The position numbers were made by a program, and so were the translations under genes. A stretch of 4,142 bases of DNA from positions 1 through 4,142 of IMG/VR virus record IMGVR_UViG_2663763280_000002, one strand, 5' to 3'. The notes beneath the pieces are model-generated. The model was given only the letters and a program-made list of their open reading frames with translations, did not search any database and was not told where the DNA came from. Positions within the stretch are counted from its first letter, which is position 1, and every line of letters begins with the position of its first letter. Below, piece by piece: positions 1 to 4,142 of the stretch. The DNA comes from a virus (lineage: Duplodnaviria; Heunggongvirae; Uroviricota; Caudoviricetes).

Positions 1-1
1 G

Positions 2-433
2 GCTGCCGGAGGCGCTCAACAGGATGACGTGCTGATGTACGTGATGCTGTGGCGCATTGATGCCGGAGATTATGCAGGGGCGCTGGAGATCGGGCGTCAT
101 GCCCTGCGTCATGGCTGGGTGATGCCGCTGGGTAACCGCAACGTGCAGACCGTGCTGGCAGAGGAAATGGCAGACGCGGCGCAGAGCGCAATGCTTGCCG
201 CCACCGGCTTTGATGCCGATCTGTTGCTGCAGACGCTGGAGCTGACAGACGGTCTGGATATGCCGGACCAGTCACGGGCGCGTCTGCATAAAGCGATTGG
301 CGCTGTCCTGAGTGAAAGCAACCCGGCTTCCGCCCTTAATCATCTCAACCATGCGTTACAGCTCGATCCTCGCTGTGGCGTGAAAAAAGACAAACAGCAG
401 CTGGAGCGCAGACTGCGCAATGACAGCCGCTGA
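2..433 (+). CDS. M: Terminase small (endonuclease) subunit, gpM-like, C-terminal part; 5' end lies outside the window
   Basis: The reading frame is open from the window edge with no in-frame stop before TGA 431-433. The first start codon in frame is GTG 29, but the frame continues upstream, so the gene is 5'-truncated by the window. Assignment rests mainly on synteny: it sits immediately upstream of the L-X-lysis-R block, as in the P2 late operon (N-M-L-X). No diagnostic motif was verified. Confidence 0.5.
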   Translation, partial: AAGGAQQDDVLMYVMLWRIDAGDYAGALEIGRHALRHGWVMPLGNRNVQTVLAEEMADAAQSAMLAATGFDADLLLQTLELTDGLDMPDQSRARLHKAIGAVLSESNPASALNHLNHALQLDPRCGVKKDKQQLERRLRNDSR

Positions 434-528
434 CAGAACGTGCCCCCGCGCACGGGCGGCACGGGGTGGCGAAAGGCACTGCCACATCAAAACCCCGTCC
501 ACCGCCCTCTATTTCAGGAGAAAGCAGC

Positions 529-993
529 ATGAAGTTTGTTGCGCCAGAACAGGCACCAGAACAGGCGGAAATCATCAGGAATACGCCGTTCTGGCCTGAT
601 GTGGACCTGTCGGAGTTTCGCAGCGTGATGCGCACTGACGGCACGGTGACGCAGCCGCGTTTAAAGCAGGTTGCGCTGTCGGCAATTTCGGAGGTCAACG
701 CAGAGCTGTATGAGTTTCGCAGACGCCAGCAGATGCTGGGGTATGCCTCGCTGGCAGAAGTTCCGGCGGAACAGCTGGACGGCAAAAGTGAGCGCATTCA
801 GCACTATTTCAACGCGGTTTACTGCTGGGCACGCGCCATGCTCAACGAACGATACCAGGACTATGACGCCACGGCGTCCGGTGTGAAGCGGGGCGAGGAA
901 CTGGCGGAAGCAAGCGGTGATTTGTGGCGTGACGCCCGCTGGGCCATCAGCCGGGTGCAGGATGCGCCGCACTGCACAGTGGAGCTTATCTGA
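529..993 (+). CDS. L: Head completion/stabilization protein, gpL-like
   Basis: ATG 529 is preceded by AGGAG at 516-520 (8-nt spacer). The GTG at 466 used by the ORF track lacks an RBS. Stop TGA 991-993 overlaps the next start by 1 nt (ATG 993). 154 aa. Position between M and X matches the P2 order. Confidence 0.7.
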   Translation: MKFVAPEQAPEQAEIIRNTPFWPDVDLSEFRSVMRTDGTVTQPRLKQVALSAISEVNAELYEFRRRQQMLGYASLAEVPAEQLDGKSERIQHYFNAVYCWARAMLNERYQDYDATASGVKRGEELAEASGDLWRDARWAISRVQDAPHCTVELI

Positions 994-1196
994 TGAAAGT
1001 GCGTGCGCATCAGTATGACACGGTGGACGCGCTTTGCTGGCGTCATTACGGGCGCACGCAGGGGGTCACGGAGCAGGTACTGAAGGCAAATCCGGGGCTT
1101 GCCGAATACGGCCCCTTTTTACCTCACGGGCTGCAGGTGGAGCTGCCGGACATTCCGACCACCACCACCGTGCAGACCGTCCAGCTATGGGACTGA
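993..1196 (+). CDS. X: Phage tail protein X, gpX-like
   Basis: 67 aa ORF with ATG 993 and TGA 1194-1196. Same length class as P2 gpX. The sequence pattern (YGRTQGV...VLKANPGLAE...LPHG..VELPD) matches my recollection of the tail X family. Translationally coupled to L. Confidence 0.75.
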   Translation: MKVRAHQYDTVDALCWRHYGRTQGVTEQVLKANPGLAEYGPFLPHGLQVELPDIPTTTTVQTVQLWD

Positions 1197-1199
1197 ATT

Positions 1200-1415
1200 A
1201 TGACGCTTGAGCGAATCAGCGCCTTTATCACGTATTGCATCGCCGTCGTGCTGGCCTGGCTGGGCGATTTGTCCATCAAGGATGCCTCAACGCTGGGCGG
1301 TCTGATGATTGGTGTACTGATGCTGGCTATCAACTGGTACTACAAACACAAATCCTACCTGCTTCTGCGCGACGGGCAGATCTCGCGGGAGGACTATGAA
1401 TCCATCAATCGTTAA
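1200..1415 (+). CDS. Small class II holin, possible pinholin
   Basis: 71 aa. Two predicted hydrophobic helices (approx. residues 6-22 ISAFITYCIAVVLAWLG and 31-49 TLGGLMIGVLMLAINWYY) followed by a charged C-terminal tail (KHKSYLLLRDGQISREDYESINR). ATG 1200 lies 3 nt after the X stop. The 3' end overlaps the endolysin start by 20 nt. It occupies the holin position of the P2 lysis cassette. Confidence 0.7.
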   Translation: MTLERISAFITYCIAVVLAWLGDLSIKDASTLGGLMIGVLMLAINWYYKHKSYLLLRDGQISREDYESINR

Positions 1416-1908
1416 ACGCTGCCTTGTCGGGGCCGTGCTGGCTATTGCTGCCACGCTGCCGGGTTTTCAGCAGCTTCACACCTCCGTGGAGGGGCTGAAA
1501 CTGATTGCTGATTACGAAGGCTGTCGTCTGCAGCCGTATCAGTGCAGCGCGGGTGTCTGGACCGACGGCATTGGTAATACATCGGGCGTCATTCCCGGCA
1601 AAACAATCACGGAACGACAGGCAGCAGAAGGGCTGATCTCCAACGTGCTGCGTGTGGAGCGGGTACTGGAAAGGTGTGTGAAGCAACTGCCACCACAGAA
1701 GGTGTATGACGCTACGGTGTCGTTTGCCTTCAACGTGGGGACGGGCAATGCCTGCAGCTCCACGCTGGTGAAATTGCTCAATCAGCGGCGCTGGGCGGAT
1801 GCGTGCCGACAGTTGCCGCGCTGGGTTTATGTAAAAGGTGTGTTTAATCAGGGGCTGGATAACCGCCGTGCGCGGGAGATGGCCTGGTGTTTACAGGGAG
1901 CAAACTGA
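1396..1908 (+). CDS. K: SAR-type endolysin, T4-lysozyme-like (GH24) muramidase
   Basis: ATG 1396 is preceded by GGGAGG (1387-1392). 170 aa. After K7-R8 the N-terminus has a weakly hydrophobic Gly/Ala-rich segment (CLVGAVLAIAATLPGF) typical of signal-arrest-release domains. The lysozyme catalytic region is DYEGCRLQPYQCSAGVWTDGIGNT (Glu41 ... Thr56). Cysteines at positions 9, 43 and 50 match the pattern of P1 Lyz-like SAR endolysins. Confidence 0.85.
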   Translation: MNPSIVKRCLVGAVLAIAATLPGFQQLHTSVEGLKLIADYEGCRLQPYQCSAGVWTDGIGNTSGVIPGKTITERQAAEGLISNVLRVERVLERCVKQLPPQKVYDATVSFAFNVGTGNACSSTLVKLLNQRRWADACRQLPRWVYVKGVFNQGLDNRRAREMAWCLQGAN

Positions 1909-1909
1909 A

Positions 1910-2287
1910 ATGAAAAAGAAATTAATCAGCGGACTGTTTCTGATGTTATGGATGGCGCTGTTAATCGCAGCAATGGTGTATCCGCAGGGGATTTTTCCGG
2001 TACTGGCAGCGTCCGGCGTTTGGGTAGCCTGTTTGCTGACATGGGCGGTAATTCCGGTAGCACTGGCTGCGTTAATTAAGAATGGCCCGCTCTGGCAGGA
2101 GTTAAGGGCATCTTTACTGAAGACAATTACCCGAAAAGAAAACGTATTTATCAGTTGGGTGATGCGATTGCTGATTGTTGTAAGTCTCGCCTGGACGGGG
2201 TGGGCTATTACCCTGGTCTTTTATCTACTGACCGTTATTGCCTTCTGGATCACCCGTAATCAGATGGCGCAACAGGTAGCAGCATGA
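1910..2287 (+). CDS. lysA: LysA-like integral membrane protein, lysis-timing accessory
   Basis: ATG 1910 is 1 nt after the endolysin stop (TGA 1906-1908), with GGGAG at 1896-1900 (9-nt spacer). 125 aa with about four predicted transmembrane helices. Located between the endolysin and LysB as in P2. The GTG at 1838 in the ORF track would overlap the endolysin by 70 nt and has no RBS. Confidence 0.6.
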   Translation: MKKKLISGLFLMLWMALLIAAMVYPQGIFPVLAASGVWVACLLTWAVIPVALAALIKNGPLWQELRASLLKTITRKENVFISWVMRLLIVVSLAWTGWAITLVFYLLTVIAFWITRNQMAQQVAA

Positions 2288-2712
2288 ACCGGTTGCTGCT
2301 GGTTGTGCTGGCGTTATTACTGGCGGCGCTGGGCTGGCAGACGTGGCGGCTGGCTGATGCCAGCCAGACCATTAGCACGCAGGCAGACGAGCTGCAGAGC
2401 AAAAGCCAGGCACTGGCAAAGAGCAACAGCCAGCTTATCAGCCTGTCCATTCTGACTGAAACCAATAACCGGGAGCAGGCGCGGCTCTATGCCGAAGCAG
2501 AACAGACCAGCGCGCTGCTGAGACAACGACAACACCGGATCGAGGAACTGAAACGTGAGAACGAGGATTTACGCCGCTGGACTGATACTCCTTTGCCTGC
2601 TGACATTATCCGGCTGCGGGAACGTCCGACGCTCACCGGAGGTGCAGCTTATCGTCAGTGGTTGTCCGCGAGTGACACCGTGTCGGCTGGATCAGGCAGA
2701 GCCGCGCACTAA
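2284..2712 (+). CDS. lysB: LysB, inner-membrane spanin (i-spanin, Rz-like)
   Basis: ATG 2284 overlaps the lysA stop (ATGA). N-terminal transmembrane helix (LLLVVLALLLAALGW) followed by a Q/A/E/R-rich, coiled-coil-like periplasmic region. 142 aa. Contains the out-of-frame start of the lipoprotein gene lysC. Confidence 0.7.
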   Translation: MNRLLLVVLALLLAALGWQTWRLADASQTISTQADELQSKSQALAKSNSQLISLSILTETNNREQARLYAEAEQTSALLRQRQHRIEELKRENEDLRRWTDTPLPADIIRLRERPTLTGGAAYRQWLSASDTVSAGSGRAAH

Positions 2713-2845
2713 CGGTGATCTGAACGCGTTGTTGGATGAAACGGAGGCCGCCTGGGCGGTCTGTGCAGACAAAGTGGACATGATTATTGCGTGTCAGGAG
2801 CAAAACAGTGAACAAACCACAATCCCTGCGCCACGCCCTCAATAA
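2555..2845 (+). CDS. lysC: LysC, outer-membrane lipoprotein spanin (o-spanin, Rz1-like)
   Basis: GTG 2555 with GAGGAA at 2541-2546. Signal peptide MRTRIYAAGLILLCLLTLSG followed by the lipobox Cys21 (L-S-G-C); the residue after the Cys is Gly, consistent with outer-membrane sorting. Pro-rich C-terminus (TTIPAPRPQ). It starts inside lysB in another frame and extends 133 nt past the lysB stop, which is the overlapped spanin architecture. Confidence 0.7.
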   Translation: MRTRIYAAGLILLCLLTLSGCGNVRRSPEVQLIVSGCPRVTPCRLDQAEPRTNGDLNALLDETEAAWAVCADKVDMIIACQEQNSEQTTIPAPRPQ

Positions 2846-3239
2846 AGCGGTGCCTTATGTCCGCAATAACCCGGACAAACTGCATCTGTTTGTGGATAAC
2901 GGTTCGCTGGTTGCCACGGGGGCCAGCTCCATGTCGTGGGAGTACCGTTACACCCTGAACGCGGTGATTGAGGATTTCAGCGGCGACCAGAATCTGCTGA
3001 TGGCCCCGGTTTTGCTGTGGCTGAGGGATAACCAGCCCGATGCCATCAATAACCCGGCGTTACGGGAAAAACTATTCACCTTTGAGGTGGATATTCTGCG
3101 CAACGATGTCTGTGATATCAGCCTGAACCTGCAACTGACGGAGCGTGTGCTGGTCAGCACTGACGGTAGTGTGTCGAGTGTTGAAGCTATAGCGGAACCT
3201 GATGAACCTGAAGAAATGTGGACGGTGAAACGTGGCTGA
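2808..3239 (+). CDS. R: Tail completion protein, gpR-like
   Basis: GTG 2808 with AGGAG at 2796-2800 (7-nt spacer); the TTG at 2787 used by the ORF track is less likely. 143 aa. The N-terminus ([10 protein letters not shown]...[14 protein letters not shown]) resembles P2 tail completion protein R as I recall it. Stop TGA 3237-3239. The last few codons lie at or near the junction with non-phage sequence, so the integrity of the C-terminus is uncertain. Confidence 0.7.
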
Positions 3240-3244
3240 ACTGC

Positions 3245-3511
3245 AGACTGATGCACTCACTGGCGGTCACTGAACAACGCGCCAGCTTCAAAGCGTGGAC
3301 ATTACTGCTGGCAATCAGTGCCTTCTCGTTGTGTCTGCTGGGGACTTTCCTGGTGCGTTCCGGCGTGCTGGTATCGGTACACGCGTTTGCCTCTGATCCG
3401 GCACGCGGTATGTTTATCCTCGCCTTTATGGTACTGGTGATTGGTGGTTCGCTGCTGCTGTTTGCCGCACGTGGACACAAAGTTCGCTCACGCGTAAACA
3501 ATGCGCTGTGG
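3245..3511 (+). pseudogene. ccmF: Internal fragment of a cytochrome c maturation heme lyase (CcmF/NrfE family); no start codon context and no native C-terminus
   Basis: Translation [88 protein letters not shown] matches my recollection of the CcmF/NrfE region just after the Trp-rich WWD domain, including a His that would be the conserved periplasmic His. About 90 of roughly 650 codons are present. The frame ends in KTGT-stop at 3524-3526, which I do not recognise as CcmF. Boundaries are approximate (about 15 nt). Confidence 0.6.
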
Positions 3512-3613
3512 AAAACGGGCACTTAGCGTGGCAAATTGCGCTACCGGGGCACAACGCTGACGCAGCGTAGCGAGCTGTCCTTCCAGTTTTTCCAGCAGCA
3601 GGGCGGTTTTCAC
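3512..3613 (-). pseudogene. priC: 5' fragment (about 34 codons) of a priC-like gene (primosomal replication protein N'')
   Basis: The minus strand reads GTG (3613-3611) then [34 protein letters not shown], preceded by GAGGT about 5 nt upstream and an AT-rich TATCAT-containing region. This resembles the N-terminus of enterobacterial PriC from memory. The frame then runs into the ccmF-like fragment and stops (PQRIVYA-stop). Identification is less certain than for the other fragments. Confidence 0.4.
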
Positions 3614-3897
3614 GATAAGACCTCAATGAAAATGATAATTGTTATGCTAAAGTAGCCACTCTGTAAGCTGACAACACTCAATATGCAACGAATCATTTTA
3701 ATCATCATGTTGAACTGGTACAGGCAACCAGCGGCACGCTGATGATTTTGCGCCATACCGCACCGCTAAGTTCGGCTGATCGCGAAAAACTGGAACGCTT
3801 TTCGCATTCTGAAGGCCTGGATCTGTATCTCGCCCCCGATAGTGAGATACTCGAAACCGTCTCTGGTGAGATGCCCTGGTATGACTCAAACGGGTTT
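3614..3897. other. AT-rich non-coding spacer between the divergent priC-like and rluD-like starts; origin unassigned, possible promoter sequences
   Basis: No recognisable coding signal; the ORFs here are short and unrecognised. Local AT-rich stretch around 3620-3720 (e.g. TATCAT about 25 nt upstream of the minus-strand GTG). This may contain native upstream regions of the flanking fragments, or a further unrecognised fragment. Confidence 0.3.
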
Positions 3898-4002
3898 ATG
3901 GCACAACGAGTACAGCTCACTGCAACGGTGTCCGAAAACCAACTCGGTCAACGCTTAGATCAGGCTTTGGCCGAAATGTTCCCGGATTATTCACGTTCGC
4001 GC
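3898..4002 (+). pseudogene. rluD: 5' fragment (35 codons) of rluD-like 23S rRNA pseudouridine synthase D
   Basis: ATG 3898 followed by [35 protein letters not shown], which matches the N-terminus (S4-like domain) of E. coli-type RluD as I recall it. After codon 35 the frame continues as [16 protein letters not shown]-stop (4051-4053), which is not RluD and corresponds to the antisense of the next fragment. Confidence 0.6.
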
Positions 4003-4142
4003 CAATCGTTCCCTGGCCAGCAATCACTTTCGGATCATCGTAAGGTGGGATAAAAATACGACCTTCCATTTCGACAATTTCGCTCACTTTAGCGATAGTG
4101 TCGTTGAAATTATCACCATGCAGAACGACTTCTGCGGAGTAG
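4003..4142 (-). pseudogene. tdcB: Internal fragment of a PLP-dependent threonine/serine dehydratase (TdcB-like), running off the window end
   Basis: The minus strand from 4141 downward translates to [47 protein letters not shown], which matches my recollection of catabolic threonine dehydratase TdcB (fold-type II PLP enzyme). Homology ends at about 4003, where the rluD-like sequence begins. About 46 codons are present. Confidence 0.6.

Follow-up and report, generated by a model that had tools for sequence, protein, structure and literature searches.

The window, that is, the whole 4,142-bp stretch of DNA analysed here, is, in exact reverse complement, the complete contig CCCB01000610.1 (4142 bp) of the draft assembly GCA_000945835.1. 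The contig number (at least 610) suggests that the draft is fragmented. We placed the boundaries of the pieces with a sensitive blastn comparison to six fetched reference loci, and the window split cleanly into six pieces that came from six unrelated loci, with 99.6–100% identity. The largest piece (positions 1 to 3247, plus strand) is a fragment of a P2-like prophage and is identical to a prophage of E. coli A28 at 3246 of 3247 nt. It contains the 3' part of gpM (terminase endonuclease subunit), gpL, gpX, a holin, a lysozyme, LysA, LysB/LysC, gpR and the first 16 nt of gpS, and Pfam families were listed for the called genes. The sole difference from the A28 prophage over the 3247 nt is at position 1360, where the holin codon is CTG instead of CAG, placing Leu54 for Gln54 in this 71-aa HP1-family holin. 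For the P2-like head-completion, lysis and tail module, identities of 97–98% were seen not only with E. coli prophages but also with many phages of Klebsiella pneumoniae, among them 4LV2017, the Kp48xx series and KP12, so that nearly the same phage module circulates in both genera.

The terminal 895 bp of the contig (3248 to 4142) are a patchwork of five chromosomal tiles of 264, 197, 188, 105 and at least 141 bp, the last of which is cut off by the contig end. Tile 1 (3248 to 3511, plus strand) is an internal part of ccmF, nt 775–1038 of 1944 (codons 259–346), and was identical to strain 504838 at 263 of 264 nt; the one difference is a synonymous GCA at 3469 where strain 504838 has GCG (Ala). 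No exact match over this tile was found among the best-matching complete E. coli genomes listed, so the source strain carries an uncommon allele. Tile 2 (3512 to 3708, mixed orientation) spans the complete priC-ybaN intergenic region, with priC codons 1–34 (minus strand) on one side and the initial 26 nt of ybaN (plus strand) on the other (197/197 nt, strain C10). Tile 3 (3709 to 3896, plus strand) is internal to rlmD, about codons 190–254 of 433, and its match to strain 504838 was 192/192 nt over 3705 to 3896. Tile 4 (3897 to 4001, plus strand) is the beginning of rluD; it runs from the nucleotide preceding the ATG to nt 104 and holds 34 whole codons and two bases of codon 35 (105/105 nt, strain 120899). 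The rluD sequence at 3896|3897 starts at position 1001 of the reference locus, in which the coding sequence runs from 1002; the extra T before the ATG could equally be non-templated, and the tile would then begin with the ATG. Tile 5 (4002 to 4142, minus strand) is internal to tdcB and reaches the contig end (141/141 nt, strain 504838). In strain 504838, tdcB lies at 3.60 Mb, rlmD at 4.02 Mb and ccmF at 4.71 Mb. Because these three loci are 0.4–1.1 Mb apart, the tiles are scraps of unrelated, distant loci. Their orientation and reading frame are haphazard across the patchwork.

The last tile had been described in an earlier note, made from the sequence alone, as a fragment of a TdcB-like dehydratase, and this identification was confirmed. 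Positions 4002 to 4142, read on the minus strand, were identical to the annotated E. coli tdcB gene at all 141 nt (megablast, E = 7e-67; the same by blastn against the fetched locus), and the tile was present in 5,388 of the 5,426 complete E. coli genomes. Within the 990-nt reference gene the tile covers nt 357–497, and within the 329-residue protein residues 120–166; this is 14% of the gene, without the start codon and without the C-terminal half. Minus-strand translation from 4141 gave 47 TdcB residues followed by unrelated residues and a stop at 3917–3919. The TdcB residues aligned to positions 100–147 of the Pfam PALP model (PF00291) with E = 6.9e-8 and 32.6 bits, which is just under the family cut-off of 35 bits because only 47 residues are present. 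Judged from the sequence, the tdcB identity of the tile is far beyond chance, and the nucleotide identity together with the PALP match indicates homology to tdcB and, with it, to the fold-type II PLP-dependent enzymes.

The earlier note had further stated that the region of the PLP-binding lysine is missing and that the fragment ends before the glycine-rich loop, and both statements held. The lysine, K58 (SFKIRG), is upstream of residue 120, at which the fragment starts and the contig ends, and the phosphate-binding loop GGGG184–187 is downstream of residue 166, at which tdcB ends and rluD begins. The tile could not encode an active enzyme, as had been expected. The break itself, put at about 4003, was borne out, although its exact place is 4001|4002, one base away, and the sequence beyond it is indeed rluD, the neighbouring tile being identical to that gene at 105 of 105 nt. 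The suggestion that tdcB might continue beyond 4142 did not stand: because window and contig are coextensive, at 4142 bp, the contig has no sequence past that position. In E. coli, tdcB encodes the catabolic (biodegradative) threonine/serine ammonia-lyase of the tdcABCDEFG operon and lies between tdcA and tdcC, whereas in the window its residues 120–166 lie between the rluD scrap and the contig end, without K58, without the glycine loop and without the tdcA and tdcC neighbours. Homology was the only feature of a TdcB gene that we found; a complete open reading frame in the context of the tdc operon is absent.

We analyzed the joins between the pieces by exact comparison with the source loci. 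Four of the five joins, 3247|3248, 3511|3512, 3896|3897 and 4001|4002, had 0 nt of microhomology. At the remaining join, 3708|3709, 4 nt are common to both sides (TCAT, 3705 to 3708) and can be assigned to tile 2 or to tile 3. Local similarity between the flanks and the sequence that they replaced gave scores of 2–6, with a null mean of 3.7 and a probability of 0.18 for a score of 5 or more, showing that flank similarity at the joins is at chance level. Overlaps of 8–10 nt that megablast reported at two joins were gapped over-extensions; exact analysis gave 0 nt of overlap there and flanks at chance level. Each tile follows ordinary chromosomal gene sequence as far as the join itself, leaving no room for an IS or a repeat element. 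At the tdcB join we found none of the signatures of known E. coli joining pathways, neither the microhomology of alternative end joining (A-EJ) nor IS, att or repeat sequences.

The break points have no restriction site and no other motif in common. Ligation at restriction sites, as in Hi-C-type protocols, was considered and rejected, as the CTGCAG at 3241 to 3246 is native to the prophage, being also present in strain A28, and no site is common to the break points. Polymerase template switching was rejected as well; it does not fit joins without overlap and with flanks at chance level. Taken together, the joins fit blunt ligation or plain concatenation, and do not fit a mis-join through k-mer overlap, template switching or E. 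coli end joining.

The arrangement was searched for in several sequence collections. By megablast, none of the 5,426 complete E. coli genomes (0/5,426) carried at least 80% of the window, or at least 80% of the 913-bp tail, at a single location; in every one of them (5,426/5,426) the window was matched only as 4–9 separate places. Megablast of phage records matched the prophage part only and that of plasmid records isolated tiles only, the arrangement being absent from both. Contig collections were scanned with exact 34- or 35-mers across three of the joins, gpS|ccmF (J1), rlmD|rluD (J4) and rluD|tdcB (J5). The 35-mer of J5 was absent from IMG/VR, from the GTDB representative genomes and from the JGI metagenomes, neither IMG/VR nor the GTDB genomes gave a match to J1, and J4 was absent from the JGI metagenomes. 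A genuine gene truncated by rearrangement would be expected to show recurrence of its junction or independent support for it, and neither was found in the contig collections or in the 5,426 complete genomes. A literature search on GCA_000945835.1 or its WGS prefix found nothing relevant. The contig has three features of a chimeric contig: its pieces come from unrelated, distant loci, its joins are blunt with chance-level flanks, and the arrangement is unique to one short draft contig, at the end of it. The earlier note had itself foreseen that the apparent junction might turn out to be a mis-assembly, and the absence of the arrangement from every collection searched agrees with that outcome.

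The framing of the tile in that note, as a tdcB gene truncated at the 3' end by a rearrangement that brought in the rluD-like sequence, was not supported; the join in question is one of five consecutive blunt joins of unrelated 105–264-bp scraps. We concluded that the tdcB piece is, very probably, the last tile of a chimeric contig produced by blunt concatenation of random short fragments, during library ligation or during assembly, and that it is not a real 3'-truncated tdcB. The tile is a scrap of a well-known gene. From the unique patchwork and its blunt joins, which were observed directly, we infer the laboratory or computational step behind them. The patchwork itself is a chain of five short random fragments of ordinary E. 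coli chromosomal genes from distant loci, connected by blunt joins in haphazard orientation with frames ignored, and this chain is attached to a genuine 3.2-kb fragment of a P2-like prophage. The likeliest cause would be blunt ligation of sheared DNA, fragment to fragment, during library or clone construction; if so, all 4.1 kb of the contig could stem from a single chimeric insert or read, composed of one 3.2-kb fragment and five small ones. Faulty extension of a contig end by the assembler would be a less likely cause. On either account the tdcB tile would be without function, and the real tdcB of the strain is presumably intact in the tdcABC operon on another contig.

Ligation chimeras are known from shotgun-type libraries, and it is these that the patchwork resembles most. 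The blunt-ligation chimeras of shotgun, SMRTbell and 454-type libraries likewise consist of random sheared pieces of distant loci, set in mixed orientation and with no sequence in common, and they likewise can carry small fragments on one larger fragment, with a total equal to a typical insert size. CCCB01000610.1 differs in that it carries no adaptor or vector remnant that would prove such an origin. One caveat concerns the type of data: short reads and a single library chimera cannot alone yield an 895-bp consensus with five joins, and such an artefact would require a long read, a cloned insert or ligation ahead of amplification. Another is that error-free natural alleles in the tiles are equally expected of a real locus.

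This bears on the possibility that the rearrangement took place in the cell, in which a double-strand break in prophage gene S would have been repaired by end joining that captured several short chromosomal fragments, so that the tdcB tile would be either a duplicated piece or one border of a disrupted tdcB. In its favour, the tiles correspond exactly to natural E. coli alleles, and the one difference each in the P2 segment and the ccmF tile from the loci compared is consistent with a single natural source strain; one join has 4 nt of microhomology, and E. coli has an alternative end-joining pathway that yields translocations (PMC11297215). The A-EJ translocations (Chayot et al. 2010, as cited in PMC11297215) resemble the patchwork in that they join unrelated chromosomal positions without long homology. 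However, in the E. coli reporter study microhomology was present at 94–96% of the end-joined translocation junctions, with 2–12 bp where a length range is given (PMC11297215), whereas four of the five joins of the patchwork have none, and the chaining of five fragments is not a described outcome of A-EJ. Furthermore, E. coli is without Ku and LigD, the arrangement occurs in none of the 5,426 complete genomes, the scans of contig collections for three joins found no match, and the patchwork sits at the end of a 4-kb contig. We therefore consider an origin in the cell very unlikely. We know of no described bacterial insertion made of five consecutive 100–260-bp fragments from loci hundreds of kb apart. 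A specific form of this possibility, that the patchwork is physically present in the isolate because the gene S break was sealed by homology-independent end joining of five shattered fragments, a small chromothripsis-like event without Ku or LigD, has in our view only a very slim chance of being correct. If the joins were true in the cell, they would be evidence that E. coli can end-join several fragments without homology; otherwise they carry little biological weight.

A graph or overlap mis-assembly, in which the assembler walked short repeats between loci or iterative gap filling extended the contig end with wrong reads, would account for a patchwork at the contig end of an apparently fragmented draft and for tile sizes (105–264 bp) that resemble short-read lengths. 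But a mis-join through overlap or k-mers needs shared sequence at least as long as the overlap or k, and the source loci share 0, 0, 4, 0 and 0 nt at the successive joins, with flanks no more alike than those of random pairs, making this explanation highly unlikely. The possibility of a deliberate or cloned construct, for example a concatenated genomic-fragment library that contaminated the sequenced sample or was part of it, arose from the join at which the reading frame of the rlmD tile continues into the rluD start codon, with the rluD tile starting 1 nt before the ATG and both genes encoding 23S rRNA modification enzymes. RlmD is responsible for m5U1939, and RluD for the pseudouridines at 1911, 1915 and 1917. 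Vector, linker, adaptor and restriction-site sequences are absent at every join, though, and the remaining joins are out of frame or antisense. An in-frame join arises by accident with a 1-in-3 chance, and we take this one as a coincidence, yet it is the sole aspect of the patchwork that does not look random. A construct is extremely unlikely to be the source. The artefact of blunt concatenation thus remained the explanation that we adopted, and CCCB01000610.1 should carry a quality flag. The contig gives no basis for calling a pseudogene of tdcB, rluD, rlmD, ccmF or priC, a truncation of the prophage or novel fusion proteins, and the tdcB tile is no evidence that the strain's own tdcB is truncated.

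Several open reading frames arise from the patchwork as by-products, at 3218 to 3526, 3488 to 3613 (minus strand), 3742 to 4053 (plus strand) and 3917 to 4141 (minus strand). The frame at 3742 to 4053 encodes a 103-aa fusion that reads from the rlmD tile through the rluD tile into antisense tdcB, and no Pfam family was detected in it. For this frame and the one at 3218 to 3526, with the starts as given here, look-up of the products returned no record. The partial frame at 3917 to 4141 encodes 74 aa, comprising TdcB residues 120–166 and 27 residues of antisense rluD before the stop. Tile 2 holds the complete divergent priC/ybaN intergenic (promoter) region and both gene starts, and as a result gene calling on the contig yielded a 41-aa chimeric N-terminal PriC product, which public protein collections now include. 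By exact look-up, the 74-aa and the priC-derived 41-aa products were on record for CCCB01000610.1 only. Like a 91-aa product also called on this contig, they are already stored as proteins in public collections.
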